A stretch of 64,000 nucleotides of DNA from Paraspadella gotoi (lineage: Eukaryota > Animalia > Chaetognatha). Location: the NCBI GenBank assembly GCA_051294375.1, contig CM119264.1, forward strand, positions 8,528,211-8,592,210, given 5' to 3'. The notes beneath the pieces are model-generated. The model made no database searches. It saw only the letters and a program-made list of their open reading frames with translations, and was not told the DNA's origin. The position numbers and the translations under genes were made by a program. How positions within the stretch are numbered: the first letter of the stretch is position 1; the number at the start of each line of letters is the position of its first letter. Shown in pieces: positions 1,194 to 39,445 of this stretch.

Positions 1194-2161
1194 AGAGAGA
1201 GAGACGAGGAGAGAATGAGAGAATGAGAGTGTGTATCGGATAGGTGGCAGAAGGAATATGACAAGCGAACGAGGGGAAATGGCGACCGAAGAACATTGTG
1301 TGTGTATATATGTAAATAATCCGTTTGATTAATTAAATTCGCTCGACACTGGGAGAGATTAGAAACGCCGTCGCCGCCTCGAATGACAAGCGGGGTAAAT
1401 GGAGAAAAATTAACGCCGCGAGCGTCGTCCGTCAATAAGCGCCAAATAAATTCCGAGTAATTTCGTTACGCGGACAGACTTATTATTTTTTTCTTTTTTG
1501 CTTAGTCTAGAACAGTGCCTGGGATGATAAATGGCCAATCGCTTGGCGACTCGTATTTGGCAATTATTTTTTCTTAAATATTAACTATAGATATTTGCCT
1601 CAACACTGTAGTGCAATTCAAAAACTAAGTCTTTTTCCTCAATTGGCTTAGAAACCTTAGCCGATTCGGGCACCACCGTCGCTACTCCTTTCGAATTACG
1701 CGAACACAAACACCAGCGTAAAAAAAAACAAAAAAAAAAACCTCCGGTCAGACACGGCAAGAGGGTCGTAGGGTTCCCTCGGGTGCCAAAGGGCAAAGGG
1801 CGCTGCCGCTGCAGCAGCGATTAAGGCGAAGCGGACGCTGCCGCCGCGACCGCAGCAGCAGCCGTTACCCTAAAGCCGAGTCTTGTTTGCGCAGTCAAAA
1901 GTCGCGCGATGAGACACGAGATCGAAAAGGGAATCGATGATCAGAGATGAACGGAGAAATGAAAAAAAAAAATTAGATGTAGATCGATATTTTGATAACG
2001 AGATTTACTATAACGACGTCGCTTCTTCGATCTGCAGAATAAAAACCACTTTTTCAGGATAAAAAGTTGAGAGTTTGAACCCGACGAATGTGACTGCCGG
2101 TTGGAGGTCAAGGCGGAAACGTTGACAGAATAAATGCAAGACTAAATGTTAACTCGAGTAT

Positions 2162-2259
2162 GTTGACGTCGGATGGTTGACGTCGGATGGTTGACGTCGG
2201 ATGGTTGACGTCGGATGGTTGACGTCGGATGGTTGACGTCGGATGGTTGACGTCGGATG
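2162..2259. repeat. 14-bp minisatellite (GTTGACGTCGGATG) x7
   Basis: Seven consecutive identical units read directly, with no spacers. Confidence 0.95.
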
Positions 2260-3161
2260 GTCGCCGGATAGTATTTTTGATATACGTAGATTTTTTTTAT
2301 ATACTTATACGTAGAGATACGTAGATATACGTAGATGCCCTAGATGCCGTCGATTCCGTAGAAATTAATATCATTGAAAGGTCTAGCGTTTGTGCATCGA
2401 TCATTTTCACTCTCGGACCAATTGGAGATAGAACCGACGGCGTAAAAAAAGAATAGCTGCGCGATGTTCCTCTTCCCTCGGGACACTCACCCGGCGTCTT
2501 CTGGGAAAGGCGCCACCGACGAAACCCGCTCTTTTTTTCACGGAGTGACTCGTTCCCTTGGAAACGCGCCCTCTCGGCGGAACGACAAAATGCAAATCGA
2601 TCGAGGAACAAAAGAACAAAGGAATATTCCCGTTCGTTTTTGTTTCCGAATCCCCAGGGATCCAATTTGTACACCGTTTTTTATATAATATTTTTTTTTT
2701 CTCGTGTCCCGTCGCGTCGACGCATCTCAATTTATTGAAATTCCTTCTGGTCGGTCGGTCAGTCTTCACGTTGGCCAGACTATCCCGCGGTCAGGAAAAC
2801 AGCAGGCAACAGTTAAGATAGCAGTGGATTTTCTGAGTTAAGCTATTAAGGCGCGGTCGTAACGAGTCGAGCCTCACGAGTCAAGGCCGACGTGAGATTT
2901 GAGTCGAGAAGGAATTTAGGTCGCGAAAAGAAATAAAAAGTAAAGTTGAGTTCTTTTCTCTGTTAGTTTATTGTGATTTTTAAGTATTTTATTTCTTTTT
3001 TTTTTTTTTGTCTTTTTTGCATTGTTAAAAATTAATTTAAAATCATTCAAATCACAGTTTTTGAAAAATCTATCTTTATACTTTTATAAATTAGATTTAT
3101 CAAAAATATTTTGGCGTTCTAATTTATATTTTCCTTATTCTTTACTATTTCTGCCTTGCCA

Positions 3162-3223
<62 letters not shown>

Positions 3224-3250
3224 TCATAGAACGTTACTTATCCTTACCAG

Positions 3251-3450
3251 CTGCCAGAGCGACGCCAAACCGGCCATTTGGAAGATGGAGGAGCGAGAGA
3301 AGTACCTCTCCTTCGGAACCGATCCCTGGGACCCGACCATCGACGCCTCCAAGTTCCGGTTTCGCCGCCGCGGGGGGCGTTTCGACCTCACCATCGTCGA
3401 CGCGCAGCTGGAGGACGCGGGGAAGTACCTCTGCAACAACAGGCTCAAGG
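3251..3450 (+). CDS. Ig-superfamily membrane protein, internal exon: V-set Ig domain (CQSDAKPAIWK...FDLTIVDAQLEDAGKYLCNNRLK)
   Basis: ttaccag acceptor and G|gtaagt donor. B-strand Cys, C-strand Trp, LTI strand and DxGxYxC motif are present. Starts in phase 2, so upstream exons are needed and were not found. Confidence 0.92.
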
Positions 3451-4136
3451 GTAAGTCGGTGAGGGAAAAAATCCTTGCGGCAATTCAAAGTCATCAGCAG
3501 CAATAATTCGCAGAAAACATATCAATGTGACCAAAAGCCCTGTGGGTGATTTGGAGTTTTGTGGGGTAACGTTTAGATTTAGAGATTAAGTCTGAAATAG
3601 AATGAGAAGAGTTGGTAAGATTAATATCTGGATCAAAGAGTTCGAACGCCAAGTAGTGAAAGTAAGAGTCGAGATGAATCTTTCAAACTTTGCGCCTTTG
3701 ACGGATTGACGACGAGTTGATAACTGCGACGGAAAGAAATGGGATCCAGTTTCAAATAGATGGCACTAAACCGATGTTTACGGCGATAATCTCTCCTTTC
3801 ACGTTTCCAAAATTTCCTCTTCTGATGGTCGTAACCAATTCACGAATTTCTAACGTTATTTACTCGCTTATCGTGAATATTTCTTTTGGAAAGATTCCTA
3901 AATTATTAAATAAAAGAATTTTATATTTTTGGAAGATGGAATTTCGTAAAAACGTCAGGCGAGTTTAGCCAAAAAAAGAGAATAAATGAACATCGACGGT
4001 TTCTATTTTAACCGAGGAAAGTTTCTCTCGTTCTCGGTTATGGGCCGCGCGTTTGTTTGGGAAGGAGATCTGGAGAAGAGGTGAAGACTGATATAGAACC
4101 CGGCGTGGCCCATTCTGTCTCTCTCTCTCTTTTTTT

Positions 4137-4236
<100 letters not shown>

Positions 4237-4894
4237 TTGTTACTTTGCTCTCTCGTTTCCGCTGTTGTCTGTTGTCTCCATTCTGTTGATATCTGAGGAT
4301 ATTATTACCTCCGTTATCACCGTCATTCTCGATCATCACGTTGTCGTCGTTGTTGTTGTGGTTGTCGTTTTCTCGAAAGAGAAAATTGTCATCCTCATCA
4401 TCGTCGTTTACTCCCAAGCACGGAGCGAGGGAGCGTCTCCTAGCGACAGGCCGAAGCAGGTGCGCGAGCGCGTTGGGCAGCGATCCAGCGATTGACCTTG
4501 ATCCTGCGAATTTGTCGCTCGGTACATGACCCGATAAATTTCAAAACTGACAAACCTCGTGAAGTTCACTCAATCCTTACTTTGGTATTTTTCATACGAG
4601 ACAAACTTAGTCAACAGCCAGCTTTGGTCATCCTCTGGAACCACCTTGTGTTTCAAATGATGCAACAACTCTGCGCAGTGCACAATGCGTTAGAGGATCT
4701 TCACTCCGATGAGTAACCATGAGAGGAGGAGGACGCCACTCGATGTGGACCGGATGAATCTCGCACCATAAAACTAGGAGATCGTAAAATCACATTACGA
4801 ACAGTGGATGACGCTCTTTTCCTCGCGACTTGTTCTCTCCTCTTCTCGCTCTCTCTTCCTCTCTCATCTCCTCTCTCTCTCTCGCTCTTTCTCC

Positions 4895-5053
<159 letters not shown>

Positions 5054-5263
5054 CTCCCAGATGCGCCTTCATTCCTGACTAAATCGCGTTGTATCTTCGC
5101 TTTGTCGTTTTGAGGCGACGAAGGTTCGCGAAGCCAAAACTCGATTTGCATTTTAAAAGGATTTTGGGGTCAGACGAGAGTGAGGCTCTCGATTCCGGGT
5201 CAAGTTTTTCCACCGGCTTTTATCTCTCTTTTTCTTTCTTTCATTTTCTACTTTTTTTGTTTT

Positions 5264-5370
<107 letters not shown>

Positions 5371-6469
5371 CTGTTTATTTCCCAAACCCTTTTCGACTTT
5401 TTTAAAATATATGTTCAAATTTTACCATTGTATTTCGTATCCCAAACCTTTTTCAGTCGTTCGATACTCTTTTTAAAAACTTGAAACGTAATTGCCTTTG
5501 AAAAAACTTTGCTCAACGATTACGTGACAGGAAAATGAAATGAATTTGTGGCTTTTTTTCAATCGATCGTTGGCGTGCTCATTTGTTTGCATGTTCATTT
5601 CTTGGTTGTCGTCTCACTTGAAAACCATCAAGAGTCGCCCGGTCTCATTCCGTCGAATCCCTTGTCTTTTGTATTTTGATTTGGTTTGCCTTGAAGAGAT
5701 GTATACAGTTGGTCGACGACATATAGTGAAATATAGCAGGAAGACTTTTTGCGCGTATTGTGATGGTAGCTAAACAATCATAACATTTTCTCAGTTTGAC
5801 TTCTTTTTTAAAACTTTGCTCGGAAAGAAAAAAGCGGTGCCACCGAGAACGCGAAGATAAAAAAATTTAATGATGACAATCAAAACGTTGAAAAGGACGG
5901 AGGCTCTTCTTCGCCTCGGAATCGATTTCAGGCCTAATCATTTCAACGCTCGGAATCCGTATGGCGCTGCGTTGTGCCGTCGCCTGACGTCAGCGGAAAT
6001 GTTTTGTTCGATATTTGCCGTCTATTGCTTTGTTTGTTTGTTTGTTTGTTTTCTATTTTTTTCTTGGTGTTTTCTGGTGTTTTTTTTTTCTTTTTTATTT
6101 TTATTTTTTTTTTTCCTCTTTTTTCTTTTTCTATTTCTTTCTTCTTTTTTCTTTCTTTTCTTTTCTTTTTCTTTTCTTTTCTTTTCTTTTCTTTTCTTTT
6201 TTCCTTTTTTATTTTCCTTTCTTTTCTTTTTTTTCTTTTCTTTTTTTTTCTTTTCTTTTCTTTACTTTTCTTCTCTTCTCTTTTCTTTTTTTCCATTCAA
6301 ATTAACAGAAGTAAATAGATTTATGACAGAAGAAAAAAATGCTATTTAAATGTAGAATCATGTGAATCAACCTGTAAATTATTTAAATCACTTTCATTTC
6401 CCCCCCTTTGCACTTCCCAACACCACCTCAAAACCTTACCACCCTACCACCCCGCCTCCACGGAACCAG

Positions 6470-6708
6470 CGGTGCTCACGGTCTTGCAACCCCCAACATG
6501 CAAACCCGTCCCTTCGGTCCGCCTCATCGAGGAGGAGCCCCTGCTGGTGACGTGTCAGGTACAGGGCGTCTCTCCCGCCGTTCCGCCGGAAGCGGGCGGC
6601 GCCGCGTCGTTGGAGGGAGCGCCGGCGCAGCGGGGCGGCGTTGGCGGCGACGCCGGGTCGCCGACGCAGCTGCTTTGGGTCTTGGACGACAGAACGATGG
6701 AAGCCAAG
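6470..6708 (+). CDS. Ig protein exon: end of D1 and start of C2-type D2 (AVLTVLQPPTC...LLVTCQVQG...TQLLWVLDDRTMEAK)
   Basis: accag acceptor in phase 1 matches the previous exon; AAG|gtgaga donor. Contains the LTVLQPP linker plus Cys and Trp strands. Confidence 0.9.
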
Positions 6709-8264
6709 GTGAGACCGGGCGAGGTTGTTATCGGGGGAAAGGGGAGATAAATGGGCAATGGGCATTAGGGTGAAGTGAAAGTTTGGAATCAAAATTTAGC
6801 AATTCAATATTTTTTTTTAATTCTGAAGACACATAAAGTTCCACATCAAGTTTATAAAAGAAAATATATAAAATATACATATAAATATATTTAAAAAGTT
6901 ATGTCATTACTTTGGTCAAAATAGAAAAAACATTTTTTCAAGCTCAAAATTTGAAGATAAGAAAAGTGTTCTTTGTTTTCACAATGAAGTTTTTAATGAA
7001 AGTTTAATGAAGTTTTATTATTTTCACATCACTCTTTTGGGTAAGGGGAAAAGGGGAAAGTAGGAAGAGGAGAAAGAAGAAGTTAAAGAGATTAGACAAA
7101 GAATAGGAAAGGAAAAAAGGTGAGGCGGGCGGAGGAGAAAGGGAAACGTAAGAGGGCGCAAGAGATTCGTCGACTTTGTTGTATTTTCTGGTTCTAAAAA
7201 TAACTCGGATCGTTTTCGTCCGAACGAATTACATTCGCCTCGAAGGTTAGATTCTTTGTGGCCAGAAATCTAATTTTAAATCTTCATAAAAAAAAAAACA
7301 CCAAAAAAACACAAAAAAACAAAAACAAATTCAATTATTTCAGGTGCGAAAAGTAATTAAATGAGATTAAGAAATATTCACTTTAAAAAAATCATTTAAT
7401 TTGCCGTAAAACGATTAAGCTTTTATTTATTTTTTTTTCCTAAAATTAATTTACGCGGAGTCTTGAGCTGACGTTAGAGAAGAGTAATAAAGTGTCCCCC
7501 CTTGAGTGGATTAAAGAGGCTTCGATTGAAAGATGAAATTAAAAAAAAAGGACGAAGGACGAAAAATTAATCGCGCGGTGGCGGGGGGGGGGTGGGCGTG
7601 GCGCGGAGGAGGAGTCGAACGCCGACCAGGAATTGTCTGGCGTAAGTGACGCTGTCATCGTCGTCGTTGTCGTCGTTTGCGTTGTTTGGTAGCTCAGCGT
7701 TTTTTTCTGATTTGTATTAATTAAAGTTTTGTATTGAGACAATTATTGATCTACTTCCACAGTCGCTAATTACTTAGTCAACTATGAGCGCAAGGGTTTC
7801 ACGTATATGTAAAACTCATTAAACTACCCTTCAATAGTATAAGCTACAAGAAATCTGTTCGAAACATCTTAACGGCAAAAAAACAAAAACAAAAAAACAA
7901 AAAAACTACAAACTACCTATAAAATCTTTTCAGTAATGAAATCTCGGCCCCTGGGACTTATTCGGGACCGATCTTTAAACCTTTCCCGCAGCCAAGCGAC
8001 GGTCGTCTGAGTCATCTGGCGTTGTCGTCGTTGTCGTTGTCGTTGTCGTCCCCGACGTCGTGGTTTTTCTCCATTTTTCCTTCTCCTTTTCCTCCCTACC
8101 TTTCCCTTTCCTTTCGCGTCGTAAAATTCAAATTTTCATCCGACGCTTGAATCGACGAATGGGAAGACGACGACGACGACGACGACGACGATTAAGACGA
8201 CGTCGACGACTTTAACGAATGAAAGTGCCCCTCATTCCTTTCGCGGGCGCCAGGGGGAAAGTAT

Positions 8265-8373
<109 letters not shown>

Positions 8374-8498
8374 CGTACTTAATTAACGCCGTCGCCGGGA
8401 GCGAGGAAACAGTAAACTCGAGATGGAAAACCTTCCGCCATTAATAGGCCGATGAGATCGAGAGAAATTCGAACGACGAGAGAGCAAGAGAGAGATAA

Positions 8499-8597
<99 letters not shown>

Positions 8598-9056
8598 AAA
8601 AGAGATAGAGAGAGTTGATCTGATTCCAGCTTTGAATAGAGCCAGAATTCGTTGGAAGAGGGCGGGGCGCTCTAGGGTATTTATGACAGGGTGGGCGTGG
8701 CTGGGCGTCGGTCGTTGGTATCGACGGCGGCGGCAGCGTCTGCGTTGGCGTTGGCGGCGGCGGCGGCGTTGTCGACGTTTGAAGACTAAATCTGATTAAG
8801 CATTTAATTAATGACGTCAACGAAGAGAGCGGAACACGGGGGCGAAGACGACGACGACGACGACAAAAATGACGACAGCGACGACGACGATGAGATGCGA
8901 CGCTGGAGCTTTTTCGATTAGAGCGGGACCCATAGACGGAGCCAGATTTCTTAAAGAGAGAAAGCTGATTTTAATACGCACATACTACATAGTTGAAATA
9001 ACTAACTATTCCAATGCAATTTACTTTTCTACTCACCTCGTCCCTTATCTCCCAAG

Positions 9057-9134
9057 GTCCGAAACTTCGGCAACGTCACAGTCTCCGAATTCGTTTTGGA
9101 CCCAAAGGCCGAGGATAACCGGAGATCGCTTAAG
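9057..9134 (+). CDS. Ig protein exon: D2 middle (VRNFGNVTVSEFVLDPKAEDNRRSLK)
   Basis: Polypyrimidine/aag acceptor and AAG|gtgaga donor; 78 nt, phase 0-0. The SxxxLxPxxEDNxxxLxC pattern is typical of nephrin/Kirrel/nectin-type C2 domains. Confidence 0.88.
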
Positions 9135-10528
9135 GTGAGACGAGTAGAGGTGGACCGAAGTGGGGCGGGGTGTAAGGCTGCTTGGTAGGGGGTGGGTCAC
9201 AGAGCTAGCTGTGGTGGAGGGGCAGGAACAACGACTCGTACTTCAACAGATCAAGCTATTGGGAGACAAATTCTTTTTTACGAAGTAGTTAAGAGTTAAT
9301 AATTGTAGTATTTTTCCCTGTCCAAATAGAAGAAAAAATATTTTTTACAGTTAAAGCGAACAAGAAATTATTACGAGTATTTAGTGAGGAGTAGCTCAAT
9401 AACTATGATCGCTTACATGCACACACAACGATAGAAAAAGAGAGAGAATGAGAAAAGAGAGAGAAAGTGAAAAGAGAGAATTTTATTCCCAGCAAATCCC
9501 TATAATCCGTGAAACAAATTCTTTCTTGGTTTATCTTTTATATGTTTCATTGTCTGAGAAAGTCCCCCCGAGTCTCCACGTCTTTTTTCCTTCAATTTTC
9601 CTTGTTTCTATGGAAAGAAAAACTTAAATGATTAATTTGACGATTCTGTTTATCCTCTTTATTTGTTAATCTGTCAATTATTATTGTGTGGTTTTTTAAA
9701 TTATTTTTTTAGTACAATAATTTTTTTAAATTAGATTATTTAGATATTTTATCGATGTTAAGGGCCTAATTCGTATTGCCGCTTTAAAAAGCCGCTATAA
9801 ACGAACCTCGCTGTAAGTTCCACCATATTGGTACATGACCTTTTAGTCCCATTTTCCTCTAATCTCGGACGATAAAAGGTTGAGCCTTACCCCCCCTCCC
9901 CTCGTTGCCAGTTTTACTAGCCTTTTCCTCCATTGTTTCCTTTACTATTGATCCGTTTCCTTCCTTTTCCCCCCATTTTTATTTTGTTCCTTTTACTGTA
10001 TTAATCCAGTTTCCTTTTTCTTTATTTCCCTTTTTTCACTTTCGTGTTGACATATTTTGCTTTTACCCCTTTTTTTCCCTTTTCTCTCTTTTTCCCCATT
10101 TTTTTCGTTAAAAGTTTTTATTCTTTTCTCTTCTCTTTCTATCCCTTTTCTTTTTTTCTCCTTTTAGTATTAATCCTTTTATACTTCTTTTCCGTTTCTT
10201 TTCTTTTATATCGATCTCTTTTTTTCTTTTCTTTCCTTCCCAATTGATCCCAAGATTCTTTTCTCTTCTTTTTCTCCGTTTTAAACGTCACGCCTCCTTC
10301 CTTTCCTTCTCCGACCCACCCTCTCATTTATTTTTTACATTCCTTCTTTCGATCTCCTTTCTACCAAATTCGCCATTTTCGCTGCTTCGTCACTCTCGAT
10401 CTCGTCCAATCATTTTAACCTCCGTCCCTTCCTGCCGTTAACTTCTCGGTTCCAGCATCGCTCTCTCCCTCCACCTTTATTTCCTTTCTTTCTCCTTCTC
10501 AATCTTCCACATCCTCCCCCCCTTCCAG

Positions 10529-10658
10529 TGCCACGTTCTCCATCCCCACTGGAACGCCTCACTTCCGGTTCCATCTTGCGGCTTCGACGAACTGGAGATT
10601 CTCTTCAAACCAAAGATAAAATGTCCCCCCTACGTGGTCGTCGAGGGAGAGGCCGCGG
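10529..10658 (+). CDS. Ig protein exon: end of D2 and start of D3 (CHVLHPHWNASLPVPSCGFDELEILFKPKIKCPPYVVVEGEAA)
   Basis: ccttccag acceptor and G|gtaagt donor, phase 0-1. Supplies the D2 F-strand Cys. Confidence 0.88.
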
Positions 10659-12057
10659 GTAAGTCCTTCTGTCCGGTCAAATCCCTCCCTTTGTCCGTGC
10701 CATTATTTCGTTTGTCCCTTCTTTGTTTCTATCGATTAAAAAATAAACTCACAAAAAGATTCTTTTACAAGTTTTCATCCGTTGATCTATTTTAAGGTTT
10801 TTTTTTCATTTTGATTATTTTTTTTCTATTATCCTTTGGTCTGTTTCTTTTCAGTCCCTTGGTTCGTTTTCTTTTCGATTTTTTTTTTTTTATAAAGTCT
10901 GTTTTCTGCTTGCCCTTTGGCTTGTTTCCGGGACGTCCGTCCGTCTGTTTTCTGAAAGAAAACAAAAAAGAAGGGAAAAAAAACATCATCAAATCTCAGG
11001 GACGATCTTTGCCTCGTAAAGTCCTACTGGGGGTAAACAAGAAGCGAGGATTTGGTTTCATTGATCTCGTTCGTCGTTGTTGCAGTTATATATATATAAT
11101 AATAATATCGACCTTTTTATAATCACTTTTAATTTAACCAAACAAATATAGGAAATCGTTATCATATATTTTGCGTCTATTTTTAGGGAATTCGGTCTAC
11201 GACGAAAAAGACGCGGATTACGATGATTCTTTCGTCTCAGAATTTTACGCAGAGCAAAATTCCTCCGTCTTCGTTCTCGGTCGTGGGGTTCCGAGTTCGA
11301 AACCCGCAAAGGTACGATTTTTTTTTTAGTAGAATTTTCCAATAAAGTAGCCATCAGCCAGTGGTTTTTTTCTCTTAGGGTTTAAGGTTACGATTTTTAA
11401 AGTCTTGTTCATGTTCAACCGAGATCCGATGTTGATATGAAATTAAGAGGATTTAAAATATTTTTTTTTGTGTGTGGAGTTTCTATCTGTATCACTATCA
11501 TATCTCTCTTTCTCTCTTTCTCTCTGTCTCTCTTTTCTAATTTTCGTTAAAGTTTTCTATCCCTCTCCCACTCTCTGTCAAAGACTATAATCCGATATTG
11601 GATTTTTTTTCAAACAGCCAAATTATTTGTTTTCAATGAATTTTTTTTTCCCAGTTAAAGCCGATGCACGATGAATTCGCAAACCAAGTTTTCAATTCTC
11701 CCAAGAGTAAGTTTTTTTTTTCAAATCTAATAAGATACGATTTGGCAATTATAAAAATATTGATAAACAAAATACAAATTAAAAAAAATTAAAGTTAATT
11801 AATAGATTGCCTTTTTCTACTGGTAAAAAAATAATATAATTTAACGATATGAAAATGATTACAACTCTCATCAGATGTTCTACGTTTTCGAAAATATGAA
11901 ATATGCCATTATAAAAATTTAGACAACTGATTTATATTTTCTATTCAAGCCTTTTATTATTTCACGTTTTCATCCATCTCATTCTTCGTTCACTTTTTTC
12001 TTCTCCTTTATTTATTCCCCTTCCTCCTTTTCTCTCCCCTTTCCTTTCCTCCTCAAG

Positions 12058-12154
12058 GCCTTCCTCCACTGTTTAATCTCAGCTGCCGAGTGACGGGAAA
12101 TCCTTCAGTCAAACTCTCGAATATTTCCTGGAAAGTCAAGTTAAGCGAAACCAG
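12058..12154 (+). CDS. Ig protein exon: D3 (GLPPLFNLSCRVTGNPSVKLSNISWKVKLSET)
   Basis: Long polypyrimidine tract plus aag acceptor; AG|gtgagg donor; phase 1-2. LSCxVxGNP...ISW is an I-set pattern. Confidence 0.88.
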
Positions 12155-13314
12155 GTGAGGGAGAGAAGAAGGAAGGGAAGGGAAGGAAGGGAGAGGAAGT
12201 GGGGAAAGGGAGGAAGAGAGGTAGGAAAGAAAGGGAAGAAATGGAGGAAAAGGGGGTGGAATAGAAAAGGAAAGAAGGAAGGGGAGAAAGGAGAAGAGGA
12301 AGAAATGAAGAGTAAAGAGGTAGGAAATACCTGCATGGAGTAATGGGTAAGGGATGGTTTAAAAAAGTTAAGGAGGTTATGGTAAGGTAAGGTAAGGTGG
12401 TGACGAAATTCTTGGAGGAACCACTTTTCCTCTGGTGACGATTATACTAATTCAGCGGGGTTGGGCGCGATGTGAATAGAGGGAGACTGCGGAGCGAGGC
12501 TGTGGGTAAGTGTGGTGGTTCAGGGTGAGGTCTCTCGGTTTCTCTCCGACGTTTTTCTCGACAGTTTCTTTGTAATCGTAGATTTTGACGTCAATTTTTT
12601 TTCTTTGGCGAAGAATTTCCGGTCGGAGGAAAAAAAAAAGGAGAGAAGAAGTGAGTCGGGGTTTAACGAGGAAGTGATTCGCGTGAAATTCAGTGAAATT
12701 GACTCTTTTGTCCGCCTTAATTAGATGATTAAATAGAATGGCAAAGAAGGTCAGATGGGTATCGGTTCGATAGTAGTGAGTCGCGAAAAGATTGTATCAA
12801 AACTAACCCTTACGCTGCGTAGAAGTGAGTAATGAGTTTAAAATTTTCACATAAAAGGAAATTTTTTTTTTGGTACTAAAATGGGGTTTGGGTGAGGCGA
12901 GGATTTTCCCCCCCAGAAAGTTTCCTCCCGCCCGAATCACAGACTGAAAAATTCTTTTTCGGTCGAGTGAGAAAATTCACAAGCGCGAAAAGGAGGAAAG
13001 AATGAAGCGCGAACGCAAAGAGATTGGAATCGCGAAACAGCGCGAGTTGCGCCCCCCCGCACCGCCCCCCCGTTCTCTTTTGGGTGAGGATTTCCTTTTT
13101 TCGTCTTACGTTTTCCTTAATGTAAAATGTGATAGGAGAGAAATAGATTAATAGTTTTTTCGTCATGTTATGTAAAATATCAATACATACGTTATAAATA
13201 AACTCAATTCGCTTCTAGTTCTTAAATTACCGATAGATTTGTCAATTCTAAATGAATTAGGATCGCTTTGGTTAGTTCGCAATATGCTGAGAGAGAGAGA
13301 GAGAGAGAAGAGAG

Positions 13315-13378
<64 letters not shown>

Positions 13379-13953
13379 CGACAAAAACGCTCTTTCTGCT
13401 GCAAGATTGATGAAAGTCTTTCGCAATTCTGCCGAGCTGAGTTGATTGGAAATGCCTTCCTTTTTTTTAAGGCGAAAGAACGTTCATGGTTTTTGGCAGG
13501 TGCCCTGACGCAGTTTTTAGAAGGTTCTGTGACGTAGTTTATTGCAGGTGTTTCGATAATTCTTTTAGAGGATACCGCTACATTTTTCATAGTAGGTGGA
13601 TGGTAGTATTAATTCAAGGGTTTAATTCACAATTCTAATTATTTTTTGTCATCACTACTTATACTAAAATACTGTACAAACAAGTCTCGTCAAGTTCTTC
13701 ACCCTACCGACTCCCGTCATTTAGAATTTGTTTAGTTCCCGCGGCATCGACTCCGACCTTCAAGGTCTCCCCGATTTAATCTCACCTCCGAGGTTCTACA
13801 ACGAATCAGGGGAAAAGAAAAGGAGAGGAAATAAAAGATGACGGAAAATGAGGGAAAGAGAATTACAAAAAAAAGTCCGCGCTGAGAATTGGAAAATAAT
13901 TAAGAGAGAGAGAGAGAGAGTGAACATGAAAAAAAGAGAAAAAGAGGGGGTAG

Positions 13954-14076
<123 letters not shown>

Positions 14077-14190
14077 GAGAGAGAGAAAGAAAGAAATAGA
14101 AACAGAGTGAGTGAGAGGTAAAAAGATAATAATGTTACTTGCTGCGCAATTTCAAAGGAAAATTTCAATCAAGCAATCGAATCTGTTTAG

Positions 14191-14394
14191 ATCGGCTCAT
14201 CCAACCCACGACCCCAAGATCCCCGAGAAACTCCCGCGCGATCGTCGGCCTCCCGTCTCGCCCCACGCCCCCACCGAGGTGGTGGTTCCGCTCCCCCGCC
14301 GACTCCTACAGCCCTCCACCCCTAACGCCACCCTCTCACTCAAGGCCGAGAACATCTTGGGCATCTCGCAGGCGAACGTCACTTTGGTGCTGAG
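14191..14394 (+). CDS. Ig protein exon: end of D3 (RSAHPTHDP...NATLSLKAENILGISQANVTLVL)
   Basis: gtttag acceptor and AG|gtgagt donor, phase 2-2. AENxLG...VTLxV is the F/G-strand motif. Confidence 0.85.
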
Positions 14395-15527
14395 GTGAGT
14401 CATTTTCAAATTGGTCCGAACCCTCAATAATCCATTATTGCTTTAGTATTTTTGCGGGCTGGGCTATTGACTAATTGAGAATAGCGGTGTCACAACTAAA
14501 AGAATTAGCTCTAACTGTAGATACGTAATATAATAATATTGAAATGTGATGGAAAAACTGACAACGACTCAGCGCGATTTGTCGGCGTTTTTCCGAAAAA
14601 AAAAATGGAATGTGAGTTGCGACGCATTTGAAGGTCTAAAAGCTCCTTTAACCCTGACCATAAACTACCAAAGAAAAAGCATCGGCTGCTCCAGCGGGTT
14701 TTTACCTTTCTATTATTGGCAGTCGTCAACTCGTAATGTTTCCATTTCGGTTGGACGCAACCTTAGTCCCGATAGGAAGGGCGTTAGTCGCTTAGAGTAA
14801 GAGAAATGGGTCGAAGAGTTAAAGACGAAATGACAACGAGAATTTTATTTTCAAGCGTACTAGGAACTATGTACATACAAAGTTTGTCCTTAAAAATAAC
14901 AATAACAAATTGATACGTATAAATAGAAAAATCCACAAAAATCGTTGCCGAGAAAAGGTTTAAGTTTGTTGTGGTTTTTATGTAATCGTCGTCTTTACCT
15001 TCGTGGTCGTCATGATCGTCGTCGCCGTTGGATTGAGGCCATTTGCGAAAATCGTTGGCGACTCGGAAGTCAAAACAGGAAACTCCCATCGCTCACCTCA
15101 CCTCACACCCATCCCTCACCACACCTCTCATCCATCCCTCACCTCACCCATCACTCACCTCACACACGCAAGGCCCCTTCCCTCCCAACCGCGTTGATGC
15201 CATGAAGTTTCCACCTGAGCCAACCCGAGTCATTTCCATTGCAACTTGCAAGGTGAGTCGCCACCAACATCCCGCGTCGCCCTCCACATTCCAGGTTTCA
15301 ACTTTCTAGGGTGAAAAAACAAAAGTGGGAGGGAAAATATTGAAAGTATGAGATCATTATAATAAAAAAAGATAAAATAATATGAAATGGAAGTAATAAA
15401 CAAAAAAAAAACCAAAAAATTGGTGGACAAAAAGAAGAAAAAGAAGAAGCGATGGTTTTGTTCGGATGTGGAGGCTGAGGCCGCTTCATAAATTATCGCG
15501 ATGTTAAGGGTCATTTCTTTACGGCTT

Positions 15528-15638
<111 letters not shown>

Positions 15639-16497
15639 CTCCTATTTTTTTCTGAATATCATTTTGTTGCCGTTTTTGGCTGCAGTTTTCGGGCTTCCTT
15701 AGGGCCCGAGAAAATCTGCGTTGTCTTTTACCGATAGCTTGGTGAGAGTGAGATTGACTCGAAATCTACTAAAACGAATCACTAATTACAATCAACACGA
15801 AAGTTTAAATAACATTAGTGGTACAGAATCTTAACAAAAACCTATCCTGCATTACGTCGGTTAAATTATATTTAAGTTTATAACGTTTTTACTTTCACAT
15901 TGGCACGACACTTGCCTATTCAGCCTTGACTCAATCTCTATCGTTGAGTCGACTTTTTCTCGGTCTCGACTTCCGCCATATTTTCGGTTGGAAGTCCTTT
16001 GCCCACGGTAGGCAGATTATCGATGAGGTTTGAGGTCAAGGGGTTACGACCTCGATAAATCAAGAGCATTAAGGAAAAAAAAAAAAGGAAAGGAATAAAA
16101 AGAATAGCTAAAAAAAAAGGAAAAGAGAAGATATTTTATTGGGGAATGCAAAAAAAAAGAAGAAAGATTGTATCAGAAATATCAGAAAATGATAAAAAAA
16201 GGAAACAAGGAAAACCCGTTCAAGCCCCCCCCCCAAAGAAAATAAGAACAACACAGAGAGCTTACTCACTTAAAGCTGGACCACGTTATTTTTCTAGCCT
16301 CGACGACACAATTAAGAGGATGTATTTACGATATCTGTTTGTCAGAATTTACTTACCATACAGTATCTGTTTGTCAGTTGACTCAAAAATGAATGAAAAA
16401 TTCCTCCTAACTCAACTCTGTAAAAACTTAAATTCATTACGATAAATACGCGATATTTACCTTCGTACAGATAAGGTACCTTCTCCGATTCGTACAG

Positions 16498-16718
16498 ATA
16501 CGGCCCCGTGATCGATTGCGACGAACTTCACGTCATCGACGTCGGATCGACGACAACGACGACTACAAAAGCGACGGAATTCAACGTCACGTGCGACGTC
16601 ATCGCCAATCCACCGATAACCGCGCGACATCTCTCGTGGAAAATGGCGGAGATAGACGAAGATTCAAACAAAAGAACAATCGATCCTAGGGACGCAGAGG
16701 CCCTCTGTCGATTGACAG
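16498..16718 (+). CDS. Ig protein exon: start of D4 (RYGPVIDCDEL...FNVTCDVIANPPITARHLSWK...ALCRLT)
   Basis: gtacag acceptor in phase 2 gives the canonical linker VTLVLRYGP. VTCxVxANP...LSW is present. The donor G|gtctga is weaker. Confidence 0.85.
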
Positions 16719-17009
16719 GTCTGACAAAGATTCGTAAACTCGGAGAACGTAATTGTAATTCAATTTTAAGATTTTATGTTGTTTTCGCAATAAAAACTGG
16801 TTTTTTTTCCTAAGATTTTATGTAAATTTTTAGTCACAATTTCCACAATGATTAGTGTTTAAATGGATTCTCTTCGTAATCTATATTACATAACTAAATT
16901 CACAAGAGTACAAAAGTCAATTCATTACTTATAAAATCACGAATTCTATATTTATTCAATGTCGCATTCACCCTCCTCAACTTTTTCCCTTCCCGATATT
17001 CTATCACAG

Positions 17010-17222
17010 TTCTCCCCCACACGCTGCCTTCCCGCCAACTCCCTCGTCAACGCGTCGTCCTCCGAATCGACGCTCGTCTCTTCAGACTCCACCGACGCCG
17101 CCTCTTCTCCGTCTCCCTCTTCGAGCGCAACCATCGCGACTCCCTCCACCGAAGTCTCGCCTTCAGTGACTTCCGGTTGCGCGTCGTCGGGGACCTTCAG
17201 CGCTTCGTGGATGACGGGAAAG
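17010..17222 (+). CDS. Ig protein exon: probable end of D4 (phase 1: VLPHT...RVVLRIDARLF...FSVSLFERN...DFRLRVVGD...DDGK)
   Basis: atcacag acceptor and AAG|gtgtga donor. The phase-1 frame is open with alternating beta-strand patterns. A Ser/Thr-rich phase-0 frame is also open, so the frame is not certain. Confidence 0.6.
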
Positions 17223-17261
17223 GTGTGAGGTGGCACTTGGGGAGTTTGCCTGTTGTTGGTT

Positions 17262-17351
<90 letters not shown>

Positions 17352-17710
17352 ACCCGACATCAAATTAAAAATCTCTTTTTATGCTTTTCATTTCAAAAAG
17401 GAATAAAGGTCCTAATTCATTTTTATCTCTTCTTATCAAATTCCTAGTATTCAGACTTCCCACCCTTCTTTTTGCTCTGCCTCTGTTCTGCCTCCCTTTC
17501 TCAGCCGCCGGACTCTCGCCCCCCCCCCAGTGCCACTGGTGAACCTGGGGGCACCGGGTGCCACCTGGGGGCACCGGGTGCCACCTGCCGCCAAAGGCCG
17601 CCGCTATCGTCAGGGCGGCGATGGCGGCGAAAACCGGCATCGAGGCCGGCGGTTGTTATGATGACGATGTTGTTGACAGCCGCTTTTATGGGCGCATCTC
17701 GGAAGCGAAT

Positions 17711-17782
<72 letters not shown>

Positions 17783-18233
17783 AGAGAGAGAAATGCCAAA
17801 ACATTCGCCGTTGGCTTTGAAATGAAATGGGTGAATGAGAGCAACAGGGAGTTTTCAACGACTCAAAAGGAAGGAAAGGGAAAGGGAGCGAAAGAAGAGG
17901 AGAGAGAAGGATGAGGAGAAAGAGAGAGAGGTAGTAGAGGAGAGCGTGACGCTTGGGTTCAGACGTAGAGCACGAAGCCTCGTCTCTAATTTCCTAGCGA
18001 TTCGGGAGATCAGAAGTAAAAAAGGCGGAAATAGTCACGAAAGTCAACACGTATCGTTCAGCAGAAAGAGAGAGAGAGAGGAAGGGCTTGCAAAAAGAGA
18101 GAATGAGAGAGAGAGAGAGGGGTTGACGTTGACGGAAAGCGTCCCCATCGCCACTCTCACTCTCTCACAATTTCGTTTCCCTTGAAAAATGGTCGCCTCG
18201 TTTTGATCCCGAAGGTTTGACCATTTCTCTCCC

Positions 18234-18235
<2 letters not shown>

Positions 18236-18326
<91 letters not shown>
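18236..18326. repeat. (GTC)n trinucleotide microsatellite, about 30 units
   Basis: Perfect run. Shorter GTC/GAC runs are frequent across the window. Confidence 0.97.
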
Positions 18327-18897
18327 CAGTCGGTGACTTTTGCAATGAGGCCAAAAAGGGCACAGATAGCTGAGGCGCAAGCAGAAAAAAGAAATGTTGC
18401 GATATGAGTGAGATTTGGCGAACAAAAGAGTCGGAGCTGGAAATAATAATAGAGGCTCTCCTATGAAAACTTAAAACACAAACATTCAATTGTGAAGCAA
18501 CGCTAAATATATTTGTTTCATCGTCATTGTCATCCTCTTCTCAGTCATCATTCTTTGTCATCTAGAAGTTAACGTTTCTCGTTTTTTTGTTATAATCACG
18601 CTCGTCATCTTCGTCGTTATCGTCGTCCATGCAGTTTGTCGATGCTAGGAACGAAATCGCCGCGACCTCTGTCGACCTTTGAAAGGAAGGAAAAGAAAAA
18701 CAAACGAAGGAGGGGATAAACAAAAGAGCAGCGGGCGACGACGACGACAACGACGACGACGACAACGCTGCCGGAATAGAAAATATGGCGGATGAAAACG
18801 AGATCGCGCCTCGGAGGTTGCATGAAGTTGGCGCCGCCCCTTTCGCTTCGGTTATTGTTGTTAGGTTTTTTTGTTTTTGCTCCTCGCTCCCTCGCTC

Positions 18898-18976
<79 letters not shown>

Positions 18977-19173
18977 TTTCATTGTTTTCCTTCAGGCGTC
19001 GGTCATCTTCCATCGTGCCTCTTTCGGCTTCTCCTTGCCTTCCTCCTCCTCCTCCTCCTCTTCCTCCTTCCTCTTCCTCTGCGCGACCCGTGTTCCCTTT
19101 CGACCGTGAAGGGCGCCCCCCGTCGACTCCCCTGTCATCCCTGGGGCGGCGCCTTTTCCCGGGCTAACGCCAG

Positions 19174-19303
19174 GAGCTGGCGGCGCCTTTCCTGCCACCG
19201 ACGGCGCCGGTTTTGGCTTCGACGGCAGCCTCGTGACGCTGGTTGCTGCGCTGGCGTTTTTCTTCTCGCTGCTGATGCTGCTGGTGGTGCTGGTGGTTAT
19301 GAG
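19174..19303 (+). CDS. Ig protein transmembrane exon (...GFGFDGSLVTLVAALAFFFSLLMLLVVLVVM)
   Basis: About 24 hydrophobic residues, followed after AG|gtaagt by RRK in the next exon. The 5' boundary is uncertain, with candidate acceptors at 18996, 19112 and 19174. Confidence 0.8.
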
Positions 19304-19551
19304 GTAAGTTAATCCTCGGTTCATCTAAGAATGCGATAAGGAGACAAAGACATATTTTATAATTGAAAATAAGAAGTTGTAATGAACATCCCTGTATCGT
19401 ACAGAATTTACCAAACAAGAATTGTAAACTCTTTCCCGACAAAAACAACCAAATCTTCTCCTTCCAAAAATAGCTCCTTACGCACAAAAATGTCCAAATG
19501 TCCACTTTCCCCACAAACCATCATCCTACGCCCCCCTTCCCTCCATCACAG

Positions 19552-19771
19552 ACGCAAAGAGTCGCTCTCGAAGAGCCACGACGTCGCCCGCGGGATCCAC
19601 GCCGGTTTCGGCGACGTCGAGAGTCTCGATTCTGACGTCACGCCCGGCGCCACCCACACCTACTCCCTCGACGGGACGATGGTGGCGGTGCTGTCATCGT
19701 CATGGCAACAAAACCACAATCCTTTAAAGAATGCCGACCTCAACTCGTCGGTCGGGCGGACGAGCAGTTTG
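19552..19771 (+). CDS. Ig protein cytoplasmic exon (RRKESLSKSHDVARG...THTYSLDG...SVGRTSSL)
   Basis: catcacag acceptor in phase 2 gives a basic stop-transfer sequence right after the TM; TTG|gtgagt donor. Confidence 0.82.
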
Positions 19772-19926
19772 GTGAGTTCGCGGTGTAAGGGGCTTCGTGA
19801 GGTGGTTGACGTAGATGACGTGGAAGAATATGAATGTAAATATCAACTTATTACATTTTATGAAGAATTAAGCACGACTAAGTTTTATGTTGTTTTTTTT
19901 GTTTTGTTTTTTTTTACATTTTTCAG

Positions 19927-20049: not shown

Positions 20050-20869
20050 GAGATCATAATGTAAATTTAACATCGATAAATAAATAAAGATAAAGACGTG
20101 GAAATTTATCATTTATTGATTAAACAAGAATTGATTCTTTTAAGATACATTTAAGATACATTCACAATTTCCAGTTTTAATTGACTTTGATTATAATTAT
20201 ATACAATTAGGACGGTAACAATTACAACTATTATGACATATTAGGGCGTAGTGAAAGTTACATACGAAAATTCAAAATGTCAATTATGAACAACATACCA
20301 TCAGTGATTATTAATTTGTAAAAAAAAAAATTTATGTTCTTCAATTTTCGTAGTAGGCTATATTTATATATAGTACTATCCTTATAAAATCGAAAAATTT
20401 CAAAATAGGCTTTTCTTAATTTTGATTGCAGATTTGAATTCCTCGTCAAAAGTTGATTAAGTGGGTTAAATATTAAAAAAAAAATATTTAATACATAAAA
20501 TTTTAATTTTCAGCTTAAAATATAAGTTATTTTAATATTTGATCAACTTAATGAAAAAAAAATTAAAAAAGAGTTATATTTCTTTATGTCAACTTTTAAT
20601 GACAAATCCAAATCTTCAAAAAAATCTTACAAAAAAATATTTTGAAATTTTAACATTTATTGGATTAGTACTAGTATAAATAGGTCCTACTGCGTAAATT
20701 GTAAAATGTATTATAAAATTTGTTTACACATAAATGTTCATTAGTATAATATTATTCGTTCCTCACTTTTAGAATTTTAATTAAAGTTAAATTTAGAATT
20801 TTTACTCCGCTTTAATACATATAAAAGTATTGTTTACAACGAGGAAACCTCGAAATGGTCGAAATCAAA

Positions 20870-21145
20870 TCAAATCTTGTCTAGAATTTTCTCCAAAATT
20901 CTTTCGTGTCGCTTCGCGTCGACTTCGCAAACGACCAACGCCCACAACGCCCCCATCGAGGGTTGAAAGTTCGACGCCGTCAACGACGACGATTCCGACT
21001 CCGACTCCGCAGCGACTCTCAGCATCCTGGGAAGGGTGTCGTGGACGAGGAAGTTGATGAGTCCTTTGATTCGACGAGTTGTGTTGGACGGAGGGAGTCG
21101 ACGAGCGGCTTGGCGAAGGGACGCTTCGCACCTCTCGACGTCATT
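20870..21145 (-). CDS. Uncharacterised type II membrane / putative helical-cytokine gene, terminal exon (NDVERCEASLRQAARRL...RRIKGLINFLVHDTLPRMLRV...MGALWALVVCEVDAKRHERILEKILDKI*)
   Basis: cccccttcttcag acceptor, phase 0, 91 codons to TGA, with amphipathic helix periodicity. Confidence 0.7.
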   Translation of the reverse strand, partial: NDVERCEASLRQAARRLPPSNTTRRIKGLINFLVHDTLPRMLRVAAESESESSSLTASNFQPSMGALWALVVCEVDAKRHERILEKILDKI

Positions 21146-21342
21146 CTGAAGAAGGGGGCCGGGGGGGTTTCAATGAGTTGTCTACGGGTATCTGGAGTGG
21201 CAGGAAAACGTGAAGACCCCCTTGGTCTGGTTTATATCGGATTAGGTACAAAACAAAACTCGAATTTCTCCATTTCAATTGAAGAAAAGCATCTGGGACT
21301 AGCAGTCATTCAATCTCCCTTGATAAAATTCCGAGGAATAAC

Positions 21343-21595
21343 CTTCATATGCTTCAGTTCGTGACACTCGTTTCCATCGCTGGAGCCGCTCCAGTCGACC
21401 CCGCTCCTGAAGTGCGATACGATCGATGGAGCGAATTCTCTTTCGGCTGCGAATTCGTGGATGACACCATCGATTCTCGAGCGAAAGACGCGACGCGAAA
21501 TGAGAAGACCAAAGATTTGGGAAGAAGTGACGTCGTGGAAGACGCAGGGATGAGGAGGAGGAGGAGTCGTCGTCGTCGTCGTCATGGTCGATGAC
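21343..21595 (-). CDS. Same gene, middle exon (GSSTMTTTTTTTPPPPHPCVFHDVTSSQIFGLLISRRVFRSRIDGVIHEFAAEREF...GNECHELKHMK)
   Basis: aatag acceptor in phase 2 matches the upstream exon. AAG|gttatt donor in phase 0 matches the downstream exon. Both splice sites are weak. Confidence 0.65.
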
Positions 21596-21789
21596 CTATT
21601 TTTTCGCGGTAGTGGAGAAATATGTAAAATAAACATACCATAGTACATATACTGTACTATCTTATATTCATTGGTATATTCAAATTTGAGAAATTAGGAT
21701 ATTTTATTGTAGACGAGTTAACTTTTTAACTCGGCTTCGAATTGCTCATCATTTTCTGTGAGCAAAGGACGTCTTCCCATTAAACTTAC

Positions 21790-22033
21790 CCGCTCCGCTT
21801 CATTCGGCTCGAGTTTGTCTCAAAATCGTAGGCGTCGTTTACGAAAGTTTCCGTTCCCCTTGAAGTTTTCTGACTCGGCGTCGTCGTCTTCAAACTCGAG
21901 TCGTTGACGGCGATGGTGACGACGCTTCCGAAAGCGAATCCCAAAACGACGGCGACGACGATGACGACGACGAAAACGACGACGAAAACGACGTTTTCTT
22001 TGTGGACGCGTCGACGAGAAAATTCTTTCTCCT
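21790..22033 (-). CDS. Same gene, signal-anchor exon (EKEFSRRRVHKENVVFVVVFVVVIVVAVVLGFAFGSVVTIAV...ETNSSRMKRS)
   Basis: tttttccag acceptor and GG|gtaagt donor. Basic residues precede a long hydrophobic stretch, and an RxKR furin motif closes the exon. Confidence 0.7.
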
Positions 22034-22381
22034 CTGGAAAAATTTATCAGTTAATATATATACAATACGTATAATATGAAATTTCTCATTCACGCAATAA
22101 ACAAGCTATTTTTTTTTCTTCTCTATTTGAACAGACTACGGTGAGATAATGCCTGTCCTTGAAATAAAAACCACCTGATCTTTGATCGTCTTCACTTTTT
22201 CTCAGCATTAACGCTTTTTGGCCCGCAAACTCTGACGCCATCTTAAGTTCAAGATTTGTTACTTTTTGGAATAAAATTCGATTGATTTAGATTAAATGTT
22301 ATTGATTAAAAGAATTGGTACAACCGCGTTAAAATTTTCGGATTAAATGCAGGAGCAAAGGATGAAAGTTTCTTCTTATAC

Positions 22382-22415
22382 CTTGGCAGTATATATAGGG
22401 AAGTTGGAATACCAT
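22382..22415 (-). CDS. Possible first coding exon of the same gene (MVFQLPYIYCQ)
   Basis: An ATG in frame with an AAG|gtataa donor in phase 1, compatible with the 22033 acceptor. It is short and has no other support. Confidence 0.3.
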
Positions 22416-38744: not shown

Positions 38745-39445
38745 AAAAACAAAAAAAAAAACATAAAAACTAGTCGTGCTTAATTGCTTCTAAAAATGTA
38801 ATAAGTTGATACATTTACATTTTCATATTCCTTCCACTTCAACCACACTTCCACGAAGCCCCTTACACCGCGAACCTCACCAAACTGTCTCGTCCGCCCG
38901 ACCGACGAGTTTAGCAGTCGGCCATTCTTAAAGGATTCTGTGGTAATGATGCCAGCATGACAGCACGCCACCATCGTCCCGTCGAGGGAGTAGTGTGGGC
39001 CCGGGCGATGAACGGACGTCAGAACGAGACTCTCAAACGTTCGCCGAAACCGCGGGGACCGCCGGGCGACTGTCGGGCTCTCGAGGGCGACTCTGCGATC
39101 GTGATTGGAGGAAGGGGCGTAGGCCAGACTAGGATGATGTGTGAAGTGACATGGGGAGGTGAGAGCTGTTGTGGTAAAGAGGCTCTACAGAAGAGAGATC
39201 TTGTGTATATGTCGAAAGAGTACACCACTAAATATGATACGAACAGCGGATGTCACTACAACCATTCATAAATTCTGCCTATCGGCCAGTCACTAGATGA
39301 ACGAGATTAACTACCTCATAAACCAACCAGCACCACAGCGCATCAGCAGCGAAAGAAAACGCCAGCGCGCAACTCCAGCTCACAGATGCCCGTCGCCCCG
39401 AACCGGCGCCGTCGAGCCGAAGCGCGCCAGCTCCGTATAGCGACC
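38745..39445 (-). other. Inverted, indel-rich copy of about 19165-19910 (Ig gene TM and cytoplasmic exons with introns)
   Basis: The reverse complement matches, e.g. ...ggtttatgaggtagttaatctcgttcatctag and ctcgtcggtcgggcggacgagacagtttggtgag. It includes intron sequence and is frameshifted throughout. Confidence 0.85.

Follow-up and report, generated by a model that had tools for sequence, protein, structure and literature searches.

A predicted three-exon gene of the chaetognath Paraspadella gotoi as a candidate precursor of a membrane-anchored helical cytokine

Does a group of short minus-strand open frames in Paraspadella gotoi encode a hidden gene and, if so, could its product be a long-chain four-helix cytokine released by furin from a membrane anchor, as an earlier note on this DNA proposed? 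We addressed this question in the window, which is the whole stretch of 64,000 nt that was analyzed. The gene is likely real and likely fast-evolving, and the chances that its domain has the long-chain cytokine fold are, judging from fragment models, about evenly balanced. The best explanation, in which a fast-evolving gene encodes a precursor of predicted type II topology and a furin-type cut frees a disulfide-tied long-chain four-helix bundle, is tentative and falls somewhat short of an even chance.

Splicing of the three proposed minus-strand exons (Table 1) bore out their coordinates, phases and GT..AG ends, and gave a single frame that stays open for 256 codons before TGA, in line with the approximately 255 residues claimed. 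The other two spliced frames had 9 and 2 stops. The hidden gene was thus recovered as a three-exon frame, with no start codon inside the proposed exons. Upstream of exon 2, 9 AGs were examined, and 21595 alone gave phase 2 and an open frame; 2 of the 15 examined upstream of exon 3 fitted, 21145, which has a pyrimidine tract, and 21133. The intron-1 donor was perfect and in the correct phase. The intron-2 donor (AAG/GTTATT) was off consensus, without the +5 G that was present in 10 of 10 neighboring donors examined, and kept AAG on the exon side. GC content was 52–55% in exons vs. 31–45% in introns, and CpG frequency was 0.115–0.156 per base vs. approximately 0.03; both contrasts followed the exon ends.

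Table 1 Coordinates of the candidate gene and of its neighbors in the window
Feature	Positions	Strand	Description
Short tandem repeat	2150-2260		Unit of ~14 bases
Ig-domain type I membrane protein gene	~3250-19900	plus	Multi-exon; several Ig-like exons; Ig matches
Membrane segment of Ig-domain gene	19224-19301	plus	Cytoplasmic tail in last exon
tRNA-Arg(TCG) gene, single	~0.85 kb beyond candidate stop codon	minus	Between Ig-domain gene and candidate
Presumed 3′ untranslated region	20656..20869	minus	AT-rich; ATTAAA at 20816 and 20781, AATAAA at 20661
Exon 3 (last exon)	20870..21145	minus	Rest of helix B, BC link, helix C, CD loop, segment D, TGA
Intron 2	21146..21342	minus	197 nt, phase 0, GT..AG, after residue 165, between Cys158 and Cys171
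Exon 2	21343..21595	minus	Thr/Pro linker, Met85, Cys98, helix A, AB loop, Cys158, start of segment B
Intron 1	21596..21789	minus	194 nt, phase 2, GT..AG, 31% GC
Exon 1 of the earlier note	22033-21790	minus	Basic cluster, hydrophobic run, stalk, RMKR; acceptor TTTTCCAG, donor GTAAGT
RMKR, furin-type R-X-K-R site	21795..21806	minus	Residues 76-79
Hydrophobic run	21906..21992	minus	Residues 14-42, 29 residues, Val-rich, uncharged, GTC-like codons; predicted type II anchor or long signal
Candidate first coding exon (uncertain)	22175..22241	minus	22 codons and 1 base, phase-1 donor, 141-nt intron
ODF3-like gene	59398-31909	minus	SHIPPO repeats

A three-periodic coding model, for which 8 exons of the two neighboring genes served as the training set, favored the proposed frame of each exon over the other minus-strand frames. 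After splicing, the proposed frame scored −2.8 and the two others −65.0 and −70.8; none of 1000 base shuffles reached −2.8. By part, the frame preference was clear in exon 3 (P = 0.004), borderline in the domain part of exon 2 (P = 0.056) and absent in the stalk (P = 0.33); the high coding score of the anchor was due to its GTC codons. Exons 2 and 3 are very probably coding, and exon 1 is probably so. That the predicted three-exon unit is a real orphan gene is highly probable.

Introns of the window were GT-AG, exons were rich in GC and CpG, spacers were AT-rich, and GA and GTC/GAC repeats were abundant. The candidate lies tail to tail with a gene for a single-pass membrane protein with Ig domains, and downstream of an ODF3-like gene. 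Similarity of the Ig-domain gene was weak and confined to Ig domains of the Robo/NCAM type, and no cytokine-receptor feature was found in the exons examined. The ODF3-like gene spreads over 27 kb, with one GC donor (57870), and its protein had 11 relatives at 52–75% identity; two expected segments were not found within the window, one of which falls at N gaps. Its unusual Cys-rich C-terminal tail was common to metagenome-derived relatives. Within one of its introns, the last two exons of the Ig-domain gene recur as an inverted copy (38771–39414, minus, vs. 19199–19880, plus; 74% identity, 16% gaps). The error pattern and a 25-N gap near this copy suggest that it is not a real duplicate but an uncorrected long read placed there by gap filling. 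Parts of the assembly are noisy.

The C-terminal domain was modeled with AlphaFold exon by exon, that is, as half-domains, and all models were of low confidence (pLDDT 54–60). The exon-2 model (pLDDT 54.2, pTM 0.27) had a helix at residues 105–132 (21525–21442), the same limits as those given before for helix A, and a short helix at 137–143. The exon-3 model (pLDDT 59.5, pTM 0.46) had helices at 167–180, 186–213, 226–237 and 246–255. Both fragment models were all-helical, without strands. Helix C was reproduced at 186–213, whereas helix B was recovered in its later part (167–180) and was coil at the chain end (158–165), and the C-terminal segment D was helical but not unbroken, being interrupted at 238–245. 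On the sequence, segment B runs to 181, C covers 186–213, with a sequon at 186, and D covers 226–256, the CD loop being rich in Ser and Glu. These helix positions, taken with the sequence, resulted in loops of approximately 25 (AB), 5 (BC) and 12–16 (CD) residues, which upholds the long–short–long order described earlier, with CD at the short end. The up-up-down-down layout requires long loops, according to the available text of PMC7378365, and the predicted order would be compatible with it. The four segments had also been described as amphipathic; at 100 degrees, amphipathicity was significant for segment B (157–181, P = 0.016), which spans the splice junction, but not for A (P = 0.92), C (P = 0.28) or D (P = 0.11).

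The domain contains exactly the four Cys claimed, at 98, 158, 171 and 238 of the spliced translation. Their bearing on topology was evaluated with a crude axial geometric model over sets of registers. In all 729 register sets, the AB and CD loops could span an overhand crossing; the BC link excluded up-down-down-up, and loop length permitted both other layouts. With helix B at 158–181, the up-up-down-down layout could accommodate two disulfides (98–158 and 171–238) in 15 of 27 register sets, and up-down-up-down in 0 of 27. Of 400 random Cys placements, 48 gave this up-up-down-down-only result and 45 its opposite. With helix B starting at 166, two disulfides were possible in both layouts (27 of 27 for up-up-down-down vs. 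18 of 27 for up-down-up-down), so the Cys argument hinges on the start assumed for helix B. Cys geometry would thus modestly favor up-up-down-down, bound to that assumption.

Homology searches were performed with single exons. A word-index search of longer proteins confirmed none of 122 candidates for exon 3 and none of 15 for exon 2 at E up to 10, and none of the pattern matches that the half-domain queries had in metagenome contigs (593 and 595) was confirmed. Against PDB sequences, the best E was 0.32 for exon 3, and exon 2 had no match. The Pfam families IL6, LIF_OSM, CNTF, Leptin, Unpaired and TNF gave no match to the single exons (half-domains) at E up to 10. The best ESM Atlas values for single exons were 0.87 and 0.89, in unnamed clusters with low recognition. 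No paralogs of the candidate were found within the window. These blanks are weak because every query was a half-domain. Separately, a phmmer search of 1.84 billion representatives with exon 3 returned one match (E = 5.9e-4), to a tandem-repeat protein over 11–19 residues, which was rejected as spurious.

The earlier note had also suggested a fold search, and the exon-3 fragment was used for it. Its matches were generic helical bundles. With Foldseek against the PDB, none of 20 rows had E ≤ 0.001, and a viral structure search gave none among 23. In a wide structure search, none of the 48161 chains reached Z ≥ 8, and no cytokine was among the 50 matches listed. The best structural match (Z = 6.9, rmsd 3.1 over 88 residues) was in simple antiparallel three-helix bundles. 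For predicted helical models such as these, generic-bundle matches would mean only that the arrangement is a common one. Together with the split of D into two helices, and with single exons that had no family match beyond weak sub-threshold rows in Pfam, NCBIfam and PHROGs, this nearest match would point toward a product with a simple or five-helix bundle. The same gene evidence would then belong to a lineage-restricted protein, secreted or in the membrane, whose ectodomain is helical and disulfide-tied without being a class I cytokine, for example, a surface, matrix or gamete protein, or the ligand of another receptor type. We consider this unlikely: the packing of the exon-3 fragment is unreliable because it was modeled without helix A and without any alignment, and the helix lengths, the long–short–long loops and the Cys positions suit the cytokine plan and are unneeded in a simple bundle.

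The front end of the spliced translation followed the order described earlier, from basic cluster through hydrophobic run, stalk, RMKR and Thr/Pro linker to the domain. Residues 6–11 are basic, and RRRVHK precedes the hydrophobic run, whose best 19-residue hydropathy was 3.61. The stalk (residues 43–75) is Thr/Ser-rich with sequons at 43 and 73, and the linker comprises residues 80–97; all three sequons (43, 73 and 186) are C-terminal of the hydrophobic run. In shuffled versions of the first 55 luminal residues, the probability of a furin-type motif by chance was 0.046. Anchoring and furin release are read from these motifs and would require exon 1 to be translated; exon 1 as untranslated GTC-repeat sequence is a live alternative. 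The six frames of the window contained 8 long uncharged runs, of which 5 had at least 26 residues: that of the candidate, the membrane segment of the Ig-domain gene and three presumably non-coding repeat products (27–34 residues), which the candidate run, built from GTC repeats, resembles. In addition, 19 of the 62 hydrophobic 19-mers in the window were Val-rich.

The abundance of such runs, three of the four others being presumably non-coding, and the lack of frame preference in the stalk and N-terminal part would suit an arrangement in which exons 2 and 3 code, 22033–21790 is 5′ untranslated and translation starts at Met85 (or Met77). Met85 lies at 21585, in exon 2, and its good start context (ACC-ATG-A) makes a leaderless product a live rival. 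This product, of approximately 172 residues, would be helical; it could stay in the cytoplasm or, like CNTF, leave the cell without a signal. Such an arrangement is nevertheless distinctly unlikely, since exon 1 has just one frame open across its 80 codons, the one leading into exon 2, ends in RMKR and a perfect donor of the right phase, and has its basic cluster, sequons and furin motif in the order of a type II precursor; the even number of Cys also suits an extracellular domain.

A start exon for the full precursor must supply a phase-1 donor and an upstream ATG. The best and nearest candidate is uncertain (Table 1) and would result in a product of 279 residues. Its ATG is preceded by AAG, as is that of the neighboring ODF3-like gene; its donor (CAG/GTGGTT) is off consensus, and its frame was not favored by the coding score (P = 0.84). 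Two alternative first-exon candidates end at 22382 and 22526. All upstream donors able to supply a start were off consensus, which also argues for the leaderless product. Farther upstream, an ATG-initiated minus-strand stretch (22562–22485) contains a Tyr-Glu-Asn-Pro motif and closes with a phase-2 donor of consensus sequence (GTAAG). Its phase prevents direct joining to the acceptor at 22033, and no linking exon was found.

Run X1 (contigs; word share 0.00), whose RNA nature is a guess, had a depth of 4–9 over 20820–21155 and none over 21156–21491, and the 15 joints listed out of its 18 included none at either intron; we base no conclusion on this run. That there is no functioning gene as modeled, the exons being chance GC-rich islands, a pseudogene or not spliced together, would agree with the absence of homologs to half-domain queries, the weak intron-2 donor and the noisy parts of the assembly, and is very unlikely given the frame-specific coding signal, the GC and CpG contrast that follows the exon ends, the matching phases at both introns and the 256 codons without frameshift or stop.

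For the preferred reading, an anchored precursor of a helical cytokine, the steps beyond gene anatomy (exon–intron structure, open frame, motif order and four Cys) are what we infer. An upstream exon would supply a short cytoplasmic N-terminus, and the protein would enter the secretory pathway and insert in the membrane with its basic cluster inside and its C-terminus outside. The stalk may be glycosylated. A furin-type protease would cut after Arg79 and free approximately 177 residues with a Thr/Pro-rich N-terminal arm; the product from Ser80 would be the same whether the hydrophobic run is retained as an anchor or cut as a long signal. Disulfides Cys98–Cys158 and Cys171–Cys238 would tie an up-up-down-down bundle, and the freed domain could signal through a cytokine receptor, for which the gp130/Domeless type is the simplest candidate, and so through JAK/STAT. 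An anchored, furin-released long-chain cytokine of the IL-6/Unpaired type, shed in the way of TNF/EDA, is possible, and clearly below an even chance; the whole chain from the gene through JAK/STAT signaling is likewise possible, at rather less than an even chance.

Domeless/gp130-type receptors are widespread in invertebrates, and their ligands are reported mostly from flies, in the available text of PMC5385356 and PMC9195186; that of PMC9601804 gives no invertebrate matches for LIF, OSM and CT-1. IL-1, another "missing" cytokine class, was recently recovered in invertebrates by structure-guided searches, as far as the available text of PMC13736523 goes. If the preferred reading is true, a testable invertebrate helical cytokine ligand would be gained, with an anchor and furin front end that is an unusual release route for this fold. 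It would join TNF-like release to a JAK/STAT ligand fold, and both contact-dependent and released signaling would be possible. Should the fold prove wrong, an unremarkable orphan protein, membrane-bound or secreted, would be left.

With its domain of approximately 160 residues and predicted helices of 24–29 residues, the candidate resembles IL-6, IL-11, LIF, OSM, CNTF, CT-1, G-CSF, leptin and IL-12p35. It shares with long-chain class I cytokines a long AB, a short BC and a longer CD loop, a short helix in a loop and few Cys. In the IL-6 and G-CSF genes, three introns fall within the domain, one of which is of phase 0 and separates two Cys where helix B begins. The one domain intron of the candidate is also of phase 0, after residue 165 and near the start of helix B, as in long-chain cytokine genes, and it stands alone instead of being one of three. 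In IL-12p35, a Cys before helix A is bonded to a Cys before helix B. Long-chain cytokines typically have a CD loop of approximately 20 or more residues, and a cleaved signal peptide or no leader; the candidate has a short CD loop, and its front end is predicted to be a type II anchor with a stalk and a furin site. It also differs from them in having no sequence or structure match (half-domain queries) and no Lys of FXXK. A Phe before D is shared with LIF-type cytokines, in which the F of the FXXK site is at the start of helix D, according to the available text of PMC9601804. The FXXK site III of the LIFR-binding LIF, OSM, CT-1 and CNTF was not found in the candidate: Phe225 lies just before D, and the residue at +3 is Ser.

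Drosophila Unpaired 1–3, the ligands of Domeless, are modeled as four-helix bundles and diverge fast, and Upd2 homologs were found in Drosophila species only, in the available text of PMC5385356. The candidate is likewise invertebrate and fast-diverging but, unlike Unpaired, had no Pfam match with single exons. Among the papers listed by a literature search that covered few subscription journals, none dealt with a type II anchored long-chain helical cytokine or with Upd anchors. The membrane-anchored short-chain helical cytokines CSF-1, KIT ligand and FLT3 ligand have a type I anchor, C-terminal of the domain, shorter helices and loop strands, and act on receptor tyrosine kinases. Like them, the candidate would be a helical ligand that is first made in membrane-bound form and then shed, and it differs in its predicted type II anchor. 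The precursors of EDA, BAFF and Eiger, of the TNF superfamily, are shed from a type II anchor. Unlike these, the candidate has a predicted all-helical C-terminal domain without strands, no TNF beta-sandwich and no Pfam TNF match; like them, it would combine a basic cluster, a single N-terminal anchor, a stalk, a furin-type site and a low-complexity linker with a C-terminal domain of ligand size.
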